A stretch of DNA of 64,000 bases from Mobula birostris (Eukaryota): assembly GCF_030028105.1 (NCBI RefSeq), contig NC_092390.1, forward strand, positions 31,354,777-31,418,776, given 5' to 3'. A program made the translations under genes and the position numbers. The number at the start of each line of letters is the position of its first letter. The stretch's first letter is position 1. Shown in pieces: positions 8,764 through 44,813 of the stretch. The notes under the pieces were generated by a model, which ran no database searches, was not told the origin of the DNA, and worked only from the letters and a program-made list of their open reading frames with translations.

Positions 8764-9468
8764 ATGACCGACGCTGCATCTGTTCACGCAGTTTCGTTAA
8801 AACTGCCAAGCTTCTAGACACTGCGACCCCAATTATGGTTCGAACAAGCAGAAGCTCAATTCCACATTCGGCAGATAACCTCGGAGTCCACTCGCTACTA
8901 CTACGTGCTGAGCTCACTCGACCAAGAGACAGCTGCACAAGTTGAGGAGTTTATACAGTCTCCCCCGGAGGACGGCAAATACACAGCATTCAAAGCCCTG
9001 CTCATAAGGACTTTCGGACTCTCACGGCGCGAACGAGCACGCCGCTTAATGCACCTGGATGGTTTGGGAGACAGGCCGCCGTCAGCATTAATGAACGAGA
9101 TGCTGGCCCTGGCTGAAGGACACAAACCCTGCCTCATGTTTGAGCAGGTGTTCCTAGAGCAACTGCCCAAAGACATATGCCTGCTGCTGTCCGACACAGA
9201 TTTCAGCAACCCCCGGGAGGTGGCGGCCCGAGCAGATGTGCTGTGGAATGCCAGGAAAGAGAGAGGGGCATCCGTCACACAGATCACCAAGCCGCGTGCC
9301 CAGCGACAGACCAGACCAGGCCCGGCAGCAGGGCCTACAAAACCCGGCGACGGGAGTGAGGAGCCCAACGAACAATGGTGTTTCTACCACCAGCGGTGGG
9401 ACACAGAGGCCCGCCGCTGCAGACCACCCTGCAGATTCCCGGGAAACGCCAGGGCCAGCCGCCGCTGA
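8764..9468 (+). pseudogene. gag: Gypsy gag (premature TAG at 8815-8817)
   Basis: MTDAASVHAVSLKLPSF*TLRPQLWFEQAEAQF... is in frame with ORF 8905-9468. C-x2-H-x9-C-x3-C motif CFYHQRWDTEARRCRPPC. Confidence 0.88.
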
Positions 9469-12420
9469 TGGCTACGGCAGTTGGCCATCAGGACAGCCTC
9501 CTGTACGTCTGGGACAAGCAGTCGGGACGCCGCTTTTTGGTCGACAACGGAGCAGAGATCAGCGTCTTACCTCCAACGAGTTACGACACCCGCAACAGAG
9601 AACCAGGACCCACCCTGAGGGCTGCAAATGGCAGCACAATACGAACCTACGGCACCCGCACGGTATGGCTACAGTTCAGCTCCAGCCGGTTCACGTGGGA
9701 CTTCACACTGGCCACCGTGGCCCAACCACTCCTGGGGGCAGATTTTTTGCAAGCCCACAGCCTGCTGGTCGACCTGCAAGGGAAGCGATTAGTCCACGCC
9801 AAGACTTTTCAAATGTTCTCCCTGGGTGAAGCACAGTTGCCAGCCCCACACTTGGACTCCATCACGCTGTCCGACGACGAATTCATCAGGGTCCTGGCGG
9901 ATTTCCCATCAGTACTGACACCGCAGTTCACGGCAGCCATGCCCAGACACGGAGTACAGCATCACATCCTGACTCAGGGACCACCCCTCCACGCCCGTGC
10001 TCGAAGGCTTCCCCCGGAGAAGCTCCGACTGGCGAAGGAGGAGTTCAAGAAGATGGAGGAATTGGGGATCATACGATGGTCTGACAGCCCATGGGCCTCC
10101 CCACTTCACATGGTGCCCAAGGCAACGGGGGGCTGGAGACCATGCGGTGACTACCGCAGACTGAATGAGGCTACAACGCCAGACCGCTACCCTGTGCCGC
10201 ACATTCAAGACTTCGCAGCAAACCTACACAGCACAAGGATCTTTTCCAAGGTAGACCTCGTCCGGGGACCCCATCAAATCCCTGTACATCGGGACGACAT
10301 CCCCAAAACAACACTTATCACCCCGTTCGGACTTTTCAAATTCCTCCGAATGCCGTTTGGTCTAAAGAATGCCGCACAGACTTTCCAGCGGCTTATGGAC
10401 GCGGTGGGACACGACCTGGACTTTGCATTCATCTATTTGGACGACATCCTCATAGCCAGCAGTAGTCGGCAAGAGCATCTGTCCCACCTCTGCCAACTCT
10501 ACTCCCGCCTGAGCGAATTCGGCCTTACAATCAACCCAGCCAAATGTCAGTTCGGACTCGACACCATCGACTTCCTGGGCCACAGGATTACTAAAAACGG
10601 GGCAACCCCGCTGCCCGCAACTTCCCCCGACCCAACACAATCAAAGGCCTGCAGGAATTCGTGGGTATGGTGAATTTCTACCACCGTTTCCTCCCCTCAG
10701 CAGCCCGAACCATGCGACCCCTGTTCACTCTAATGTCGGGTAAGGGCAAGGACATTACCTGGGATGAAGAGGCCGCAACCGCTTTCGTTAAAACCAAAGA
10801 AGCCTTGGCAAACGCCGCGATGCTAGTGCACCCCAGAACGGACGTTCCTACTGCCCTCACGGTGGACGCATCCAACACAGCGGTCGGTGGAGTGCTGGAA
10901 CAACTCATCAAGGGCTGCTGGCAACCCCTGGCGTTCTTCAGCAAACACCTACGACCACCTGAACTCAAATACAGTGCTTTCGACCGGGAGCTATTGGCAC
11001 TACCCGTGGCAATCCGACACTTCAGGTACTTCTTAGAAGGTAGGCCCTTCACCGCGTTCACAGACCACAAACCGTTTACCTTTGCGTTCATGAAGGTGTC
11101 CGCCCCCTGGTCGTCCCGCCAGCAGCGACATCTGTCCTACATCTCCGAGTACACGACGGACATCCAGCATGTCTCTGGAAAGGACAACATTGTGGCGGAC
11201 GCACTATCCAGACCTACCATACAGGCCCTGTCCCAGGGGGTGGACTATGCAGCGCTGGCAGAGGCACAGCAGGCAGACGCTGAGATCTCCAGTTACAGGA
11301 CTGCAGTCTCAGGTTTGCAGCTCCAAGACCTCCCCGTAGGCCCAGGTGAGAGGACCCTACTATGTGACTTAGCTACCGGCCAACCCCACCCCGTCGTCCC
11401 AGCAGCCTGGCGCCGGTGGGTTTTCGAGTCCATTCACAACTTAGCGCACCCCTCCATCAGGATAACCGTCCGGCTGGTCGCCAACAGGTTCGTGTGGCAT
11501 GGACTGCGTAAACAGGTCAGTGAATGGACCAAAACGTGCATGCAGTGCCAAACAGCCAAGGTGCAGCGGCACACCAAGGTTCCGCCGCAGCGGTTCGAAC
11601 CCACCCGCCGGAGGTTCGACCACATCCATGTGGATATCGTGGGGCCCCTGCCAGTGTCACGAGGAGCGCGGTACCTCCTAACTATGATAGACCGGTTCAC
11701 CAGATGGCCAGAGGCAGTCCCGCTCACCGACACCACCTCCGAATCCTGCGCCCGAGCACTGATCGCAACCTGGGTAGCCCGCTTCAGGGTATCGGCCCAC
11801 ATTACCTCCAACAGGGGCGCCCAGTTCACCTTCAGTCTGTGGTCAGGTATGGCCAACCTTTTAGGATCTCAGCTACACCACACAACTGCCTACCACCCAC
11901 AGTCGAACAGACTAGTGGAGCATTTCCGCCGTCACCTGAAATCGGCTCTCATGGCCCGCCTGGAGGGGCCTAACTGGGTGGACAAGCTTCCCTGGGTCCT
12001 GCTCGGAATCCGCACGGCGCCCAAGGAGGATCTGCACACCTCGTCGGCCGAGTTGGTGTACAGCGCACCCCTGGTAGTCCCAGGAGAGTTCATACCAGCC
12101 CCAAGGGGGCAAGAGGAAGAACCCACAGCAGTCCTGGACAGGCTACGGGAGAGGCTCGGTAACCTGGCCCCCATCCCCACTTCACAGCACGGACAGAGCC
12201 CGACCTGCGTACCCAAAGACCTGCAGAACTGTAAGTTTCTTTTTGTATGACGGGGCGGACACCGGGCACCGCTACAGCGGCCCTACGAGGGACGTTTAAG
12301 GTGATCAGGAACAACGGGTCCACGTTCGTGCTGGACATTAGGGGGAGAGAGGAGGTTTTCACGGTGGACTGACTCAAACCGGCCCATGTGGACTTGGCGC
12401 AGCCGGTCCAGGCTCAGGCA
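9441..12420 (+). pseudogene. pol: Gypsy pol (protease, RT, RNase H, integrase), frameshifted
   Basis: Protease LVDNGAEIS (DTG expected); RT MPFGLKNA and YLDD; RNase H VDAS...ELLA...TDHKP; integrase HHCC and DIVGP. Deletion/frameshift near 10615-10625 and another near 12240; end coordinate approximate. Confidence 0.93.
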
Positions 12421-30151: not shown

Positions 30152-30854
30152 GATCACTGGCATTGTAAAATAATACACCAATTGCCACACTACCTGCCTC
30201 CCCCATGCTACCGTGCTGCACAATTAAGCAATTCCTTTTAGGTATTTTTAAGTATTAAGTAATATGCGCAACAGGATCTATCATTTGTGCTTGCATTCCA
30301 GGCCTGATTATTTCACTTAATCATTTGCAGCAGGGTATCTAGGAGCTTGATGCCTGACTCCTGTTGCTAAATTCCAAGGCAACGTTCATTCTCACCTCAA
30401 TCATAGGGTGAACAAGCTTTGTCCTCCCCTTAACAGGGAAGATGATATCCCTGCGGGCCCCAATACAATTTCATGTTTTCCAGAGTCCCACTGATATGCC
30501 GGGGGAGGGGGGTTGGGGATGGGGTTGTTCAGCAGACTGAGAGAGGACCTTCTTTTCACATATTGAAAGTAAGACCCAGCCACTCAGCAAATAAATCAAT
30601 GATGGCAACACAGGCAACCGCGGCCACATGTAAAATATCAACCATGCCTTTGTCTTCTCAGCTGCTTAATCCACAGAGTTCTTCCAGCAGTTTATTTTAT
30701 TGTCTGCATAATCCAGTGACTAAGGTTTGTTGACATTGGTTTTGGGGAGCAGTCACTATTTTCCATTAGGTAGAAGGAATAGATATACTCCTGCAACACA
30801 CATCAAAGTTGCTGGTGAACACAGCAGGCCAGGCAGCATCTCTAGGAAGAGGTA

Positions 30855-30892
30855 CAGTCGACGTTTCAGGCCGAGACCCTTCGTCAGGACTA
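30855..30892 (-). ncRNA. Minimal type I hammerhead ribozyme motif
   Basis: Exact reverse complement of the + strand motif at 30959-30996. Confidence 0.75.
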
Positions 30893-30958
30893 ACTGAAAG
30901 AAGAGCTAGTAAGAGATTTCTTACTCTCTTCAAATCTCTTACTAGCTCTTCTTTCAGT

Positions 30959-30996
30959 TAGTCCTGACGAAGGGTCTCGGCCTGAAACGTCGACTG
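30959..30996 (+). ncRNA. Minimal type I hammerhead ribozyme motif
   Basis: UAGUC-CUGACGA-AGG(GUCUCGG)CCU-GAAA-CGUC^GACUG: complete catalytic core, stems I and II, palindromic ACGU stem III. Confidence 0.78.
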
Positions 30997-31171
30997 TACC
31001 TCTTCCTAGAGATGCTGCCTGGCCTGCTGTGTTCACCAGCAACTTTGATGTGTGTTGCTTGAATTTTCAGCATCTGCAGAATTCCTCGTGTTTGTGTTAT
31101 TATACTCCTGCAGGAGCTTTGTCAGTGACGAGGTCAAAGTTATGATGAAAAGGATTTTGTGGCAATGAAGT

Positions 31172-32290
31172 TGTCATGGTCCAGTCTGTGGGACCCGCGT
31201 TCCGGTTCACGTCCCGGTCTGTGGTTCCTTGTTCTGGGCTTTCTGGTTTTCCCCAGGTTCTGTTGTAGGCACATGGTTCTCGTTTTGGGGCTGAGACATA
31301 AATACCTCTGCAAAGCAGGGATTCCCTGCTGGACTGTTCTGTTCCCCTCCCTGTCTTTCCCCCCCACCTAACTCTCTGCCTGGATACCTTGCCTGTATAC
31401 CCTGCCTGTATCGCTGAAGTTTTACCGCTGGAGCAAGACCGGAGCCTTTTTAGGTCAAGATAAGAAACTGTCTTTTGTTGTGTGGAGTTGTCTCTCTGTG
31501 TCCACGCCTTTGCTAGGTAGGTCCGGCCGTTTGCCACTACCCAGTGTTGGGAACTACCTCTGTGTCCTCGCCTTCGCTAGGTAGGTCCAGCCGTTTGCTA
31601 TCACCTTGTGTTGGGATCTGTCTCTTCATGTTCAGCATTCTGTGTATGAGCCCCGGCCCTACATCCTGTTCCCAAGGAGGGGTCCCGGCTCTGTGTTCTG
31701 TGTTCCCGTCTCTTCTAGTCCAAGGCTCCATGCTGCTATCTCTTCTAGTCCAAGGCTCCATGCTCCTGAAGGCCCTCGTCCAGTCTGTGCCTAGTCCAGT
31801 CCTATCCGAGTCCTGTCCTTGTGTCATGCCCTACCCAGGAGTTCCTCACCCAAGCCATGTCCAGTTCTATAGCCTCATCTTGTCCTCGCCTAGTTCTGGA
31901 GTCCGCGCTTCAGTCAACTCCCAGGCTGTGGGTCCTTGCCCAGTCTCTGGCTCAGAGCCCAAGCCTCAAGGCTCAAGACCCGAAGCCTGTCTCCAAGCCT
32001 CAAGGCTCAAGACCCCAAGCCTGTCTCCAAGCCTCAAGCCTCTGGACCCCAGCCTCCAGTCCTGACGTCATGTCATGTCCTTGCCTGGTTCTGGGGCCCG
32101 AGCCTGAGGCAAGACCCAGGTTCTGGGTCCTTGTCCAGTCTCTGGCTTGGGGTCCAAGCCCAAGTCTGTGTTCTTGTCCCTGCTCCTTGTCTGTATCCTG
32201 TCATGTCCCTACTCCAGTCAAGTTCTGTTCCTTGTACTTCAGTGACTGTGCCTTGCATTTGGGTCCATTCCCAATGCCCCCCATGTGACA
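31172..32290 (+). mobile_element. Solo LTR (~1.1 kb)
   Basis: TGTCATG...TGTGACA ends, exact 5-bp TSD GAAGT (31167-31171, 32291-32295), internal tandem repeats. Confidence 0.85.
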
Positions 32291-32295
32291 GAAGT

Positions 32296-33300
32296 AGCCT
32301 TGCAAGGTCATCACTACCACCGTCATGGAGCTTCAGTGTGTGGATGGCAATGCCATCACAGCACACCTTAAAGAAGACCTCCAATGAAACCTGAATGCTT
32401 TTGCTGAGGCATATAGGGCCCTGAGTTTTGTTTTGAATATTACAAAGATGCAGGTTCTATATATCATCAGCTGCCCAAGCAGCAATTTATCCAGTCGTCC
32501 CTCCAGAAAAGTTGGTGATACTGCCATTGAACGTAAACCACCTTCCCTACCTTGGCAGCATTCTCTCCTCAAAAACAAACATCGACTCAGAGGTCAAACA
32601 CCACCTGAGTTGTGCTAGCCCAAGCAAGATTAAAGAAAATGCTTTGAAGACATTGATGTACAGGTCCAAGCTAAACCTTTGGTCAATAGACTAGTTGTCC
32701 TTCCTACAAATTGCATAGAGCTGAATCATGGACCACTTAAAAGACCCTTCTGAAGGATTTGAAAATCAGCTGGAAGGACAGGCACACTATCACCAGTGTG
32801 CTGGAGGAGGCCAAAATGAACAGCATTTCCACCATGATAAAGCAATACTAACACCAATGGATAGGTCATGTCATCTGGATGCCTAACTCATACGTCCCAA
32901 AAACAGATCCTTTACTCCCAATTGAAAGAAGGTCAGGGAGCCCCTGGTGGACAAAGAAAATGCTTCAAAGATAACATCAAAATCAGCCTGAAAAAATTCA
33001 ACATTACATCTAAAACTTGAGAAGATGTTGAACTCAATCGGTACACCTGGAGGAAATCTGTTCGACAGAGAGTCATGCTACATGAGAGCGACCTCCACTG
33101 AGAACAATCAGCAGCTGATTAAGGGGAGACTGAACAGCCAAAAGGCCCAACCACTAACCACAGCCACCATTTACTCTTGTCCACACGGCACCAGAATATC
33201 TGCATCCCAGATCCGCTTCTACAGCCACCTGAGGACTCACCAATAGACAACCCTTTAGGAGAACCTTAATCCAGTCTTCACTGTGATTGGCTCTGTCCTA
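32296..33300 (+). mobile_element. RTE-clade LINE 3' fragment
   Basis: HLPYLGSILSSKTNIDSEVKHHLSCAS, WIGHVIWMP and C-terminal YSCPHG...YSHLRTH. Confidence 0.75.
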
Positions 33301-35397: not shown

Positions 35398-36653
35398 TGT
35401 CATGGTCTGGATCGGAGTCCCTTTAAATTTAGCTTGTTTATGTTACGATCTGGACCGTTGATTCCCTGTTTTCCCGTGTTCCTCGACTTTGGTGATTAAA
35501 GGCAATTAACACTGGGCTGAACCGGTAGTTTATAATCTCCGGCTTTCAGCCGTTTGGCGCAGGAGCGTCTGCAAAGGTACGGTATGCCAATGTCATCTGG
35601 CCGGAGCAAGCCTTGTCTCCGCCCGAAGTGAGTGCCGGTAATTCGCCTTTCCTCACCAGAGCAATCTTGTCCAGTTACCTCGCTGAAGCGAGCCTGTAAA
35701 GTTTCCTCTTCAAGGTGGGTCCGTCAGTTTACCCGCCAGAGAGAATCAAGAGCCGCTGTCTACTGTTCCCGGGCCGAGTCGAGAGCTCGGCACTACCCGG
35801 AGGTTCCAAGCACCACGTCCACGTCCTGGCTCTGGCAGCATCCAAGTACCACGTCCACGTCCTGGGCCTGGTGGCATCCAAGTACCATGTCAAGTCCTGG
35901 CCCTGGCGGTCTGTGATACCTGTCCTACCCCCTTGTCTGAATCCCTTCTCTGCCCCTCTCACCTCTAGCCCTCGTCTGCAGCCTCACCTGCACTTTGGTC
36001 TAGTTCTATCACCGGAGCTAGATAGGTACCGTCTGGTGTTCATTCGTGTTGGTCTTGTCTTGTCTTGTCCTCGCCTCAGTGGGGTAAGTCTGGCCGTCTT
36101 GCCGTTGCCCCGTGGGGTGTCATGTCTTGTCTTGTCCTGTCCTCGCCTCCGTGGGGGTAAGTCAGGCCGTCTTGCCGTTGTCCCGCAGAGGGTCATGGGT
36201 CATGAGTCATGAGTCCCGGCCCTATGTCCTGTATCCAAGGAGGGGTCCCAACTCTGTGTTCTGTGTATGTGTCCATGGTTCCATGTACCTGCTCTCCCGA
36301 GACCGAGGTCCTGTTTTCCATGTTCCTCCTCTCCCTAGCCCATGTCATGTCCATTCCTGGTTCTGGGGTCCGAGCCCAAGGCAAGACCCAGGTACTGGGT
36401 CCTTGCCCAGTCTTGTGCTCAGAGTCCATACCCTAGCCTCTTCATGTCTCCTCTAGTTCTGGGAGCCGATTCCGAGTCCTAGCCCAGACCCTTGGTCCCA
36501 GCCTAGTCGTAGTCCTGAGTCCTTATCCTGTTTGCTATTCCTGCTTCTGTCTTTCTCTCCTGGTATCGTACAATAAACTAAACCTAAGTAACCTCTCAAG
36601 ATGTGTCTTGCATTTGGGTCCACCCTTGCTCCCAGTGCCCCGCCATTGTGACA
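35398..36653 (+). mobile_element. Solo LTR (~1.26 kb) inserted in a Rex1 tail
   Basis: TGTCATG...TGTGACA ends, exact 5-bp TSD CACTC (35393-35397, 36654-36658), AATAAA near the 3' end; shares blocks with 31172-32290. Confidence 0.87.
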
Positions 36654-37679: not shown

Positions 37680-38262
37680 ATCTTCCTTCACTTTCTCCCA
37701 TAGTCTCATATCTTCCCCTGACTTGCCCATCACCCTCCTTTGCTGCCCTTCCTCCTTCCCTTTCTACCATAGTCCACTGTCTACTCCTATCAGATTCCCT
37801 CTTCTTCAGCCCTTTACCTCTTCCACCTATCACCTCCCAGCTTCTTTCTTCGTCACCCCTCGTCACCCACCCACCTTCCCCCTCACCTGGTTTCACCTAT
37901 CACCTGCCAGCTTGTACTCCTTCCCCTCCCCTCACCTTCTTATTCTGGCTTCTTCCTTCCTCCTCTCCAGTCCTGATGAAAGGTGTGCCCTGAAATGTTG
38001 ACTGCTTATTTCTCTTCACATATGCTGCCTGAGTTCCTCCAGCACTTTTTGTATGCTTTCAAAGATTTCTAGCATCTGCAGAATCTCAACCACAAAATAT
38101 TCTGCAGATGCTGGGGTCAAGGCAACACTCACTGCAAGCTGGATGAACTGATGAAGGGTTCCAGCCCAAAACGTTGACTGATCATTTCCACGGATGCTGC
38201 CCGACCTGCTGAGTTCCTCCGGCATGTTGTGAGTGTTGATCTGCAGAATCTCTTATGTTTAT
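37680..38262 (+). mobile_element. Penelope 3' terminus with a second mini Penelope nested in its tail
   Basis: Degenerate hammerheads at ~37968-38004 and ~38147-38180; 14-bp TSD atctgcagaatctc (38074-38087, 38239-38252). Confidence 0.7.
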
Positions 38263-38841: not shown

Positions 38842-40177
38842 CGCACACAAAGTGCGATTGGAACGCAGCAGACCAGACAGCATCCATAGAAAGAAGCACA
38901 GTCGACGTTTCAGGCCGAGACCCCTCATCAGGACTAACCGAAAGAAGAGATAGTAAGAGATTTGTAAGTGGAAGGGGAAGGGGGAGATCGGAAATGATAG
39001 GAGAAGACAGGAGGGGTGGAATAGAGCTAAGAGCTGTAAAGTTGATTGGCAAAAGGGATACAAGACTGGAGAAGGGAGAGGATCATGGAACGGGAGGCCT
39101 AGGGAGAAAGAAAGGGGGAGGGGAGCTCCAGAGGAAGATGGAGAGCAGGCAAGGAGTTATAGTGAGAGGGACAGAGGGAGAAAAAAGAGAGAGAAAAAAG
39201 GGAAAAGTAATAAATAAATAAATAAATAAATAAATAAAGGATGGGGTAAGAAGGGGGGAGGGGCATTAACGGAAGTTAGAGAAGTCAATGTTCATGCCAT
39301 CGGGTTGGAGGTTACCCAGACAGAATACAAGGTGTTGTTCCTCCATCCTGAGTGTGGCTTCATTTTTACAGTAGAGGAGGCCGTGGATAGACATATCAGA
39401 ATGGGAATGGGACGTGGAATTAAAATGTGTGGCCACTGGGAGATCCTGCTTTCTCTGGCGGACAGAGCATAGGTGTTCAGCGAAATGGTCTCCCAGTCTG
39501 CGTCGGGTCTCACCAATATATAGAAGGCTGCATCGGGAGCACCGGGCACAGTATATCACCCCAGCCGACTCACAGGTGAAGTGTCGCCTCACCTGGAAGG
39601 ATTGTCTGGGGCCCTGAATTCTGGTGAGGGAGTAAGTGTAAGGGCAGGTATAGCACTTGTTCCACTTACAAGGATAAGAGCCAGGAGGGAGATCGATGGG
39701 AAGGGATGGGGAGATGAATGGACAAGGGAGTCGCGTAAGGAGCGATCTCTGCAGAAAGCAGAAAGGGGTGGAAGGGAAAGATGTGCTTGGTGGTGGGATC
39801 CTGTTGGAGGTGGCAGAAGTTACGGAGAATTATATGTTGGACCTGGAGGCTGGTGGGGTGGTAGGTGAGGACAAGGGGAACCCTATCCCTAGTGGGGTGG
39901 CGGGAGGATGTGGTGAGAGCAGATGTGCATGAAATGGAAGAGGTGCGTTTGAGAGCAGAGTTGATGATGGAGGAAGGGAAGTGCCTTTCTTTAAAAAAGG
40001 AAGACATCTCCCTCGTCCTGGGATGAAAAGCCTCATCCTGAGAACAGATGCGCTGGAGATGGAGGGATTGTGAGAAAAGGATGGCATGTTTGCAAGAGAC
40101 AGGGTGGGAAGAGGAATAGTCCAGGTAGCTGTGAGTGTCCATAGGCTTATAGTAGACCTCAGTAAATAAGCTGTCTC
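38842..40177 (-). mobile_element. Penelope-like element, inverted 5'-truncated arm
   Basis: RT C-terminus (VYYKPMDTHSYLDYSSSHP), GIY-YIG endonuclease (VIYCARCSRCSLLYIGETRRRLGDHFAEH), intact hammerhead at 38899-38936. Confidence 0.92.
38899..38936 (-). ncRNA. Minimal hammerhead ribozyme motif
   Basis: Minus strand reads UAGUC CUGAUGA GGGGUCUCGGCCU GAAA CGUC GACUG. Confidence 0.72.
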
Positions 40178-40189
40178 TTATCACTAGAT

Positions 40190-42046
40190 AAGCTTCTCAT
40201 GCTCTGGATTTTTTCAATGATTTTAAGTTCCCTGGACCCCACCACCTTATTTTCACCATGGATGTCCAGTCCCTATATACCTCCATCCCCCACCAAGAAG
40301 GTCTCAAAGCTCTCTGCTTCTTTTTGGATTCCAGACCTACCAGTTCCCCTCTACCACCACTCTCCTCCATCTAGCGGAATTAGTCCTTACTCTTAATAAT
40401 TTCTCCTTTGGCTCCTCCCACTTCCTCCAAACTAAAGGTGTAGCTATGGGCACCCTTATGGGTCCCAGCTACGCCTGCCTTTTTGTTGGCTTTGTGGAAC
40501 AGTCCATGTTCCAAGCCTATACTCGTATCCGTCCCCCACTTTTCCTTTGCTACTTTGACAACTGCATTGGCACTGCTTCCTGCACGCATGCTGAGCTCGT
40601 TGACTTCATTGACTTTGCCTCCACCCTGCCCTCAAATTTACAGTACCTGGTCCATTTCTGACACCTCCCTCCCCTTTCTTGATCTTTCTGTCTCTATCTC
40701 CGGAGACAGCTTATCTTCTGATGTCTACTATAAGCCTACGGACTCTCACAGCTACCTGGATTATTCCTCTTCCAACTCTGTCTCTTGCAAAAATGCCATC
40801 CCTTTCTCGCAATTCCTCCGTCTCTGCCGCATCTGCTCTCAGGATGAGGCCTTTCATTCCAGGACAAAGGAGATGTCTTCCTTTTTTAAAGAAAGGGGCT
40901 TCCCTTCCTCCACCATCAACTCTACTCTAAAACGCATCTCTCCCATTTCACGCACATCTGCTCTCACCCCATCCTCCAGCCACCCCACTAGGAATAAGGA
41001 TCCCCTTGTCTTCACCTACCACCCCACCAGCCTCCAGCCCCAACATATAATTCTCTGTAACTTCTGCCACCTCCAACGGGTTCCCACCACCAAGCACATC
41101 TTTCCCTCCCCCCTTCCTGCTTTCCACAGGGATTGCTCCCTGCGCGACTCCCTTGTCCATTCGTCTCCACCGATCTCCTTCCTGGCACTTATCCTTGTAA
41201 GCTGAACATGTGCTACACATGCCGTTACTCTTCCTCCTTCACCACCACTCAGGGCCCCAGACAGTCCTTCTGGGTGAGGCGACACTTCACTTGTGAGTCG
41301 GCTGGTGTGATACTGTATACCGCATCCGGTGCTCCTGGTGCGGCCTTCTATATATTGGCGAGACCCAACGCTGGCTGGGAGACCATTTCGCTGAACATCT
41401 ACACTCTGTCTGCCAGAGAAAGCAGGATCTCCCAGTGGCCACGCATTTTAGTTCCATGTCCCATTCCCATTCTGATAAGTCTATTCATGGCCTCCTCTAC
41501 TGTCAAGATGAAGCCACACTCAGGTTGGAGGAACAACACTTTATATTCCATCTGGGTAGCCTCCAACCTGATGGCATGAACGTTGACTTCTCTAACTTCC
41601 ATTAATGTCCCTCCTTACCCCATCCCTTATCTATCTATCTATCTATTTATTTATTTCCTTTTTTTCTCTCTCTCTGTCCCTCTCACAATAACTCCTTGCC
41701 TGCTCTCCATCTTCCTCTGGTGCTCCCCTCCCCCTTTCTTTCTCCCTCGGCCTCCCGTTCCATGATCCTCTCCCTTCTCCAGCCTTGTATCCCTTTTGCC
41801 AATCAACTTTCCAGCTCTTAGCTCCATCCCTCCCCCTCCTGTCTTCTCCTATCATTTTGGATCTCCCCTTCCCCCTCCCACTTTCAAATCTCTTACTATC
41901 TCTTCTTTCAGTTAGTCCTGATGAAGGGCCTCGGCCCGAAACGTCGACTGTACTTCTTCCTATAGATGCTGTCTGGCCTGCTGCATTCCATCAGCACTTT
42001 GTGTGTGTTGCTTGAATTTTCAGCATCTGCAGATTTCCTCGTGTTT
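40190..42046 (+). mobile_element. Penelope-like element, forward arm (RT plus GIY-YIG, decayed)
   Basis: TMDVQSLYTSIPHQEG, GVAMGTLMGPSYACLFVG, FLDLSV, KNAIPFSQFLRL; frameshifted GIY-YIG; terminal tail. Confidence 0.92.
41913..41950 (+). ncRNA. Minimal hammerhead ribozyme motif
   Basis: UAGUC CUGAUGA AGGGCCUCGGCCC GAAA CGUC GACUG. Confidence 0.7.
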
Positions 42047-43116: not shown

Positions 43117-43367
43117 TCACTGACAGGTGTGCAGCCTGGAGCTCTTGCCTTGGCCGGGCCCTCCTCCCTTCTGCATCCGACACGATAACCCCTGGGCGCA
43201 GTCGCACCTCTGAAATATCTCCAGGCCGTGCGACCCTTTGCGTTTGTGTTTGGTGCACACCTGACCTTCCCTCAGCACCGGCTTACAGATCTTGGACCAG
43301 AAGTGTCGAGCGCAGCACAAGCCCTGCGCGCAGTCGGACGATCGAAGGCACACATCGCCTTCTTGAC
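43117..43367 (-). CDS. dkk1: Dickkopf-1 exon 4 (colipase-fold CRD2, stop)
   Basis: [55 protein letters not shown]...LHTCQ*; acceptor cttttccttccag; 10 Cys. Confidence 0.97.
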
Positions 43368-43469
43368 CTGGAAGGAAAAGAGCGAGAGCGAGCACCATAA
43401 AGCCTCATCAGCAAACCACTCACAACTATTTCCCTTTGAATGTGCCTCATCATTTCGCTCTCAACCTAC

Positions 43470-43601
43470 CTTTCACCTGGTGAGGCCTGGCGGCGAGCGT
43501 CGTCTTCCGTGGATGCGCGTCCACAGTAGCGTCCCAGGTCTCCAGTATGGTCTCCTCGATTTCGCCCTGGATATGTTCCCCATCGTCCGGAATACACATA
43601 C
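43470..43601 (-). CDS. dkk1: Dickkopf-1 exon 3 (linker)
   Basis: GMCIPDDGEHIQGEIEETILETWDATVDAHPRKTTLAARPHQVK; tgcag acceptor, gtaggt donor; phase 1-1. Confidence 0.95.
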
Positions 43602-44263
43602 CTGCATGCAATAAAATCCAGAGATCCAGTAAATTATGAATTACTATCGGAAGAGGAAACACCCTCCGTCACTGCCATCCGCCCAAAAGGAAACCAGATA
43701 ACTTGATCAAAGGGGTTTCGCTTCATCAAAAACCAGGGGTAAAGTGGGTGTTGGGCGAGGTGATCGTTGACTGGTGTTATAGTGGTAAAATTAATCGATA
43801 TAGTTTCTATATGTTTCTCTTTTCTGCTTTCTATCGCGTTGTGACTTCTACATTTTTTCATGGATGTAGGATTAATATTAGTCGTTCTGTGCCGCAGCCG
43901 TTCACCTATCCTGAAGGCATACTGAATGTCGGTCAAACCCTCCCCCCCCCGGGACCCCACTTGCTGAAATAGTTCACCCTACTTGCCCGCCAGGTCAGAT
44001 TATATTTGCCAAAGGAAGCTAGCTACTGGAGGAACTCAGCGGGCCAGGCAGCATCTGCGGAGGGAAATGGGCAGTCCACCCTTCATCTAGCCTGGATGTG
44101 TGACTGTGTAAATTAGATTACTATTTATAATATAATTTAAACTCATAAAGTTTCGCTTAGACCTCCAGGCTCTCATCGCCCTTCCGCACCCGCAGTAATC
44201 CCGCTCCCTCACTGTCTCCCACTTTACAGGTTCGCCCCTCCCCGCGTCCCTTCCTGCGCTCAC

Positions 44264-44414
44264 CGTTGTTGCAGCGAGTCCCCGGGCAGCACATTGCGTT
44301 CCGGGCGCAGCGTTTACGACGTCGGCGACAATTCAGGCAATGCTGCGCGCCAGGACGAGAACCGGAGCAGAACTGGTCTGCAGAGCAGTCCTGGTCATCC
44401 AGGCAAACAGGGAA
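44264..44414 (-). CDS. dkk1: Dickkopf-1 exon 2 (CRD1)
   Basis: FPVCLDDQDCSADQFCSGSRPGAQHCLNCRRRRKRCARNAMCCPGTRCNN; ctttccctcag acceptor, gtgagc donor; phase 0-1; absent from the supplied ORF track. Confidence 0.95.
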
Positions 44415-44813
44415 CTGAGGGAAAGGAGAGCAGAGTCAGTCCAACTCGTGTACAGCCTGGCATCCGCTGTAACTCGGGGGAAATCCATAACACAGCAGCC
44501 CAGACACACAAAACCCTGTGACCTGCACACACTAACATACATCCTGCAAAAGAAATCATAAGGGAGACGCACATCAGATTCTGCAGGTAATGCGGGGCTG
44601 ACATGCACCATTCAGAAAGGAACGCACGGCAAAACTTTTAAGTAAGGAAGCTTCATTATTGAATTGTTCTAATTTAATCGAATTTACTAAATTGAAAGAA
44701 AAAAATACTGAAGGTACCAAAGTGACCATTCCAGATTGCATAAGGTCTTCGGACTTGCTGTTGTCGACACTGCGTTGGAAGCAATGTCAGTGTTTTCCGT
44801 GGGAAATATTTAC

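Follow-up and report, generated by a model that had tools for sequence, protein, structure and literature searches.

Penelope-like elements (PLEs) that carry an endonuclease (EN+) have been described as inserting in a head-to-head inversion, with a tail on one end only, a target site duplication (TSD), a hammerhead motif in the pLTR and strong 5′ truncation (PMC8557442 Fig. 2; accessible part of PMC3846280). The tail measures 30–40 bp, and the origin of the tandem and inverted structures has been termed unresolved (PMC8557442). The minimal hammerheads of metazoan PLEs have a short helix I, an unpaired base before helix II, no helix III and a palindromic 15.2–16.2, and pairs of them lying 100–700 bp apart on opposite strands have already been reported; single motifs of this kind gave no cleavage and dimers little (available portion of PMC4209133). 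For PAc, a Poseidon PLE of the lizard Anolis, the accessible text of PMC11167929 describes a protein that cuts and extends both strands in vitro, a reverse transcriptase (RT) that starts at two sites bracketing, and thereby defining, the tail, and a hammerhead that required protein for cleavage and without which insertion in vitro still took place. Finally, the non-LTR retrozymes are short, non-coding and PLE-related, and carry type I hammerheads, two on the same strand, in head-to-tail tandems (bioRxiv 10.64898/2026.07.22.740005, available part).

Comparison of the window (the whole 64-kb stretch of DNA analysed) with itself recovered a perfect inverted repeat (127/127), with arms at 30793–30919 and 30932–31058 around a centre of 12 nt; a chance origin of such a repeat is far out of reach. 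The second arm is separated by 42 nt from the right copy of a 12-bp direct repeat (30784–30795 = 31101–31112, plus strand) that flanks the unit. The geometry given in the first-pass annotation, namely exact arms of 127 bp, a 12-nt spacer, a tail and a 12-bp TSD, was thus reproduced at the same coordinates. Because the first 3 nt of arm 1 (30793–30795) double as the last 3 nt of the left TSD copy, where they also match the element and offer a possible priming microhomology, the insert proper spans 30796–31100, a palindromic unit of 305 bp. Arm 1, on the minus strand, is an inverted, untailed and 5′-truncated PLE end, and its 3′ end coincides with an internal end site of the family (+91 to +94 from the hammerhead core). 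Arm 2 together with the 3 nt before it (30929–31058, plus strand) is a forward 5′-truncated PLE end. It alone carries the PLE tail of about 36 nt (31059–31094, plus strand), which is in keeping with the length described for EN+ PLEs and is delimited by the clusters of family 3′ ends seen in public contigs at 31059–31063 and at 31094. A further 6 nt (31095–31100, plus strand) lie between this usual family 3′ end and the TSD, as judged from the window sequence and contig ends. The first 9 nt of the centre (30920–30928) are foreign to the PLE, since the loose ends of contigs put family upstream sequence before 30929, whilst 30929–30931 are still element sequence. This 9-nt insert reproduces two stretches of the adjacent arm in their original order, omitting 2 nt between them, and a match of this type arises in a random 9-mer with a frequency of 0.0015 (uniform composition) to 0.007 (local composition). 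The pattern resembles a templated insertion made during end joining, or re-priming by an RT. Joined without the insert, 30788–30795 and 31113–31116 would make up a target site that is itself palindromic over 12 bp, with its centre of symmetry 2 nt from the TSD end.

On sequence grounds, the unit represents the pLTR, or 3′ end, of an EN+ PLE of Neptune/Nematis type, as RT and GIY-YIG sequence is found in a 3.2-kb copy of the same subfamily. A BLAST search of the window with the unit gave, apart from the two arms themselves, 14 matches at E under 0.001. The best were to both ends of this decayed insertion, which lies about 8 kb away at 38842–42046 (91.6% over 166 nt, between arm 2 and 41883–42046, and 88.5% over 104 nt). 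It has the same anatomy as the unit, with an untailed inverted arm of about 1.3 kb, a tailed arm of about 1.85 kb and a 13-bp TSD (38829–41/42047–59). Its frames are broken yet match Mobula and Hypanus proteins at up to 84% identity, as well as sea-urchin proteins bearing weak RVT_1 and GIY-YIG matches; its relatives reach an E-value of 5e-84, and tblastn with protein P0008, which has weak RVT_1 and GIY-YIG matches, gave 7e-61. To judge from these protein matches, a myliobatiform ray is the probable source of the window. The GIY-YIG match of the copy itself is weak (E 0.013, below the Pfam cut-off), and an initial Pfam scan of four broken frames returned no family at E 0.01. Its translation contains two cysteines between GIY and YIG, and upstream of these a linker, CX4CxxC, of the CX2-5CxxC form defined in PMC8557442. 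This is the Neptune/Nematis linker, whereas PAc belongs to another clade (accessible part of PMC11167929). The RT and GIY-YIG coding sequence is found in this sibling and is absent from the palindromic unit, which holds the features of an EN+ PLE insertion (hammerhead pLTR, inverted 5′-truncated copy, one-sided tail and TSD) but differs from those described in consisting only of two pLTR stumps, with no ORF and with arms still 100% identical. A PLE origin, with an inverted truncated end joined to a tailed end, had been proposed for the locus beforehand and is borne out by the copy of the same anatomy. In alignments with the unit, the two arms of the long copy have 11 columns in common, with 3 and 13 private to one or the other, and the shared columns fit a single source element per insertion. 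Head-to-head arrangements are already described for PLEs, and in this respect the unit is an ordinary one, one more copy of a very abundant element.

Eight insertions within the 64-kb window were mapped onto the long copy, with positions counted from the hammerhead core. Five of the arms have their 3′ end at +129 and six at +88 to +95, and there is one outlier at +72. These two sites of the ray family match the two RT start sites of the lizard PLE, as given in the available text of PMC11167929. Four head-to-head pairs are bounded by TSDs, which measure 12 bp in the unit, 13 bp at 38842–42046, 14 bp at 38.1 kb and 15 bp with 2 mismatches at 45.7 kb. All four combine a tailed with an untailed arm and no two share a centre, and in two of them the untailed arm reaches further 5′ than the tailed one (by about 55 nt at 38.1 kb and about 45 nt at 45.7 kb). 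Moreover, two solo untailed copies bear TSDs of their own, of 16 bp at 50.05 kb and 12 bp at 46.5 kb. TSDs in the window therefore range from 12 to 16 bp, as against 8–10 bp in rotifer examples (PMC8557442; accessible part of PMC3846280). The TSD script found no convincing duplication for fragments at 6.9, 38.6 and 44.0 kb, and these were for that reason left out of the pair count. Four short PLE copies (38148, 45741, 50120 and 38624) have 5′ ends between −3 and +6 of the start of the hammerhead core, and none of the four starts at the predicted cut site (+28). The position of these ends suggests that the template ends, is spliced or blocks the RT immediately upstream of the ribozyme. Stem I of the hammerhead is preceded by a pyrimidine tract that ends in AG. 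The pair at 38.1 kb (38074–38252, 150 bp, 14-bp TSD) is itself inserted in the tail of an older PLE copy (37969–38260).

We favour, with a probability of roughly 0.7, the reading that the unit is a single, heavily 5′-truncated EN+ PLE insertion in which two copies of the element's end were joined head-to-head, probably through priming at both ends of the cut. The PLE protein would cut the two strands 12 nt apart, and the 3′ end of the top strand, aided by the 3-nt match, would prime cDNA synthesis at the internal start site to give arm 1, whilst that of the bottom strand would prime at the end of the tail to give arm 2 with its tail. RNA from one source element would template both cDNAs, each of which would stop after about 125–170 nt, and repair would then join them through a 9-nt insert copied from neighbouring sequence. 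The product would be a passive genomic scar, and a transcript running from end to end, if made, is predicted to fold as a 127-bp hairpin in which the ribozyme is buried. Priming at both ends would account for the TSD, the one-sided tail, the fixed outer ends and the variable centres, and also for the solo untailed copies and for untailed arms that are longer than their tailed partners.

Two observations count against it: the truncation points of the two focal arms are no more than 3 nt apart, and 4 of the 15 contig joints listed are exactly symmetric. Such symmetry is not what independent truncation would lead one to expect, and it needs either a common 5′ end or block on the RNA, or a fold-back. 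In the latter case the identity of the element would be the same, but a single cDNA would have snapped back and copied itself, with the tail left by endonuclease resolution. Such self-priming explains the symmetry better than priming at two ends does, and pairing between the centre and the terminal part of arm 1 is feasible (predicted −8.7 kcal/mol as DNA). Furthermore, self-priming on an antisense template has been proposed for head-to-head Penelope junctions (accessible part of PMC3846280), and resolution by the endonuclease as the origin of tails (PMC8557442). However, in 2 of the 4 pairs the untailed arm extends further 5′ than the tailed arm that would have served as its template, and the solo untailed copies finish at the same internal site, which, as they bear TSDs, must be a primary start. 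We therefore regard a fold-back as unlikely, whilst giving it some weight. Two-ended priming, for its part, should also produce tailed/tailed and untailed/untailed pairs, given that neither start site of the lizard PLE showed a strand preference in the available part of PMC11167929, but none was seen among the four. The in vitro mechanism data concern the Poseidon clade, whereas the ray element is of Neptune/Nematis type; the pair census is small and comes from one window, and some contig joints lie near 30 times single-copy depth, so that some centres do recur. A two-ended model for inverted PLE pairs was not found stated in open-access main texts, although older Penelope papers may hold it, and no paper on PLE inversions by twin priming was found by title or abstract start. 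The value of the unit is that of a clean fossil of PLE integration, and on its own it is of little consequence. Ray genomes hold very many such junctions, however, and counts of the tailed/untailed asymmetry could separate two-ended priming from fold-back.

Four public runs, out of 8 holding at least half the words among 24 listed, were compared at the level of contigs. Both outer junctions are crossed with 0 differences by two runs of one sample, which may be the source of the window. In one run of a second organism label the left junction is crossed, with 2 of 286 bases different, both in the flank, and the right junction is without cover. The outer junctions found in public contigs show the inverted arm to be real DNA, and the left junction common to both labels indicates that the insertion predates their split. 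No empty site was seen; the second organism carries the left junction, and its uncovered right side proves nothing. Among the 32 pieces listed (168,783 more exist beyond these) none spans the centre, and its letters are therefore those of the window alone. Three DNA runs each contain one contig, at single-copy depth, with A in place of the T at 30930 of the window; it may represent this locus or another copy. The perfection of the arms, the unspanned centre and this mismatch count in favour of the palindrome being a fold-back artefact of assembly or library preparation. Nevertheless, the 12-bp TSD, the one-sided tail and the 3-nt microhomology are biological hallmarks, and together with the junctions recovered from public contigs and the diverged pairs of the same anatomy in the window they render an artefact highly improbable.

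The shared left junction also bears on age. The unit had been called very young, which needs moderating: the insertion is young, yet not private to one organism, since the second shares the left junction with a flank differing at 2 of 286 positions. At 0.35% change per lineage the probability that the arms remain identical is about 0.41. Their identity thus requires no special cause, and gene conversion, considered as one, is unneeded.

Summed contig depth reaches 3–6 million in the arms against 7–11 in the flanks, a figure that is not a copy number but indicates a very abundant family. The depth at 30930 is far lower (at least 69, 149 and 243 in three runs). Contigs contain at least 1,301 different arm-to-arm joints (15 listed and 1,286 more), counted with sides under 30 nt at 92% likeness, and joints of this kind often come from repeats. 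The exact symmetry of 4 of the 15 listed joints is to some extent imposed by the alignment, since in other subfamilies the match breaks off at equal positions in the two arms.

These counts bear on the earlier proposal that the 305-bp palindrome is a non-autonomous mobile unit, retrozyme- or MITE-like, that is copied whole by PLE machinery. It retains the tail end that the PLE protein would need, and non-autonomous PLE derivatives exist (PMC8557442; available part of bioRxiv 10.64898/2026.07.22.740005). Moreover, some other centres recur at high depth. In organism A the symmetric joint 30841–31010 has depths of 199 and 249 against single-copy values of 6.9 and 7.3, a ratio of about 30, and in organism B its depth is 17.5, about 1.6 times single copy; it may reflect amplification of a palindromic unit or carriage within another repeat, or else be artefactual. 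By contrast, the centre of the unit itself has no second copy in the 64-kb window, and its depth at 30930 is minute beside that of the arms. All other pairs differ in their centre, no tandem array is present and the right inverted repeat is not terminal. The exact centre matched 0 metagenome loci; as the family hammerhead pattern also matched 0, this blank is uninformative. With different centres in 4/4 window pairs and at least 1,301 different contig joints, a separate non-autonomous family is not upheld, and a unit of this kind is in our judgement very unlikely. Membership of the retrozymes was rejected, as the unit is head-to-head with one core per strand instead of head-to-tail with two on the same strand. 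MITEs have inverted repeats at both termini, directly abutting a TSD of fixed length. Membership of this class was likewise rejected on the terminal-repeat criterion, given the 42 nt between arm 2 and the TSD and the 12–16 bp TSDs of the relatives. A broader and distinctly speculative idea, to which we attach little probability, is that some head-to-head PLE stumps in rays have been re-mobilised whole by the parent protein, yielding palindromic ORF-less mini-elements that seed dispersed sources of hairpin RNA and of which the unit would be a founding or low-copy member. The hint of re-mobilisation comes from the joint whose depth relative to single copy is about 30-fold in one organism as against about 1.6-fold in the other. 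If this were true, the hairpin RNA of palindromic mini-elements would act against the most abundant retrotransposon of the genome.

A hammerhead core is present on each strand, starting at 30964 (plus) and 30887 (minus). The plus-strand motif (30960–30995) comprises stem I (30960–63/30992–95), the core (30964–70), an unpaired A (30971), stem II (30972–75/30980–83) and GAAA (30984–87), followed by a C-G pair with no loop before the U-C site. Helix III is absent, and the cut is predicted after C30991, in agreement with the position first proposed. The minus-strand motif (30856–30891), with coordinates computed from the palindrome, mirrors it and has its predicted cut after 30860. With a CUGANGA and GAAA core, helices I and II and an NUH site but no helix III, both are minimal type I motifs and resemble those of metazoan PLEs, although helix II has 4 bp with two G-U pairs against 7–8 bp in Schistosoma (accessible part of PMC4209133). 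The 'intact hammerhead on each strand' claimed previously is therefore intact as a minimal motif. Rfam gave 0 matches at the gathering threshold across the window, and a scan by E-value gave sub-threshold microRNA-hairpin matches only, caused by the palindrome. Stem positions are paired in 88% of cases over 13 window copies, against at most 50% in slid controls, whilst covariation amounts to one compensatory change, with a score reached by 83/500 shuffles and thus not above them.

In predicted folding the whole unit forms a single hairpin (minimum energy −270.6 kcal/mol), and forcing the hammerhead within it carries a penalty of 74.6 kcal/mol. The pair probabilities of the hammerhead stems are predicted to be about 0 in the whole unit and 0.39 in the isolated motif. 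The two copies, unlike the motifs described in the available part of PMC4209133, are perfectly complementary on opposite strands; each transcript holds one sense copy, so no dimer can form in cis. Whichever strand is transcribed, the antisense core emerges ahead of the sense core (offsets 85 and 172; 127 and 214). Self-cleavage, which had been put forward for the unit, is therefore unlikely, as the hammerhead costs about 75 kcal/mol, the antisense arm is transcribed first and helix III is lacking. The minimal ribozymes are predicted to be locked inactive within the hairpin.

Lastly, Pfam was run on 148 of the 213 frames of at least 75 aa in the window, and detected mobile-element domains together with two Dickkopf exons (43.1–44.4 kb, minus strand). 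The 3′ end of the Dickkopf coding region faces the unit at a distance of about 12 kb, and a LINE RT fragment is found about 0.6 kb from the unit. On the evidence of these frames the unit is probably intergenic, though short exons may have escaped. In a presumed RNA run, family contigs are present and the unique flanks are uncovered, which speaks neither for nor against transcription. Penelope inverted repeats are already described as yielding matching siRNAs in transformed Drosophila (accessible part of PMC3681739), and by analogy dsRNA or siRNA may in principle be produced from the unit. This precedent and the perfect 127-bp stem could be taken to mean that the locus has been co-opted as a hairpin-RNA source or a self-cleaving regulatory cassette. 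Yet the nearest host exons detected by Pfam in the 148 frames scanned are those of Dickkopf, about 12 kb off, the identity of the arms is expected from age alone and the ribozyme is buried in the predicted stem; we give co-option almost no credence.

The Dickkopf exons (DKK1/2/4-like, 43120–44435, minus strand) have a PLE fragment between them at about 44030–44085, and the N-terminal cysteine-rich exon has the inverted PLE pair at 45.7 kb about 1.2 kb upstream of it. Beginning 60 nt to the right of the focal TSD, the sequence is repeat-rich (31173–32300 and again at 35700–36450), with internal repeats of 30, 34, 64 and 195 bp; high contig depth at 31213–31398 marks it as a separate repeat family. 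An N gap of 149 bases occupies 2638–2786. A Gypsy-like LTR retrotransposon with long gag, RT, RNase H and integrase frames is found at 8818–12250 on the plus strand.
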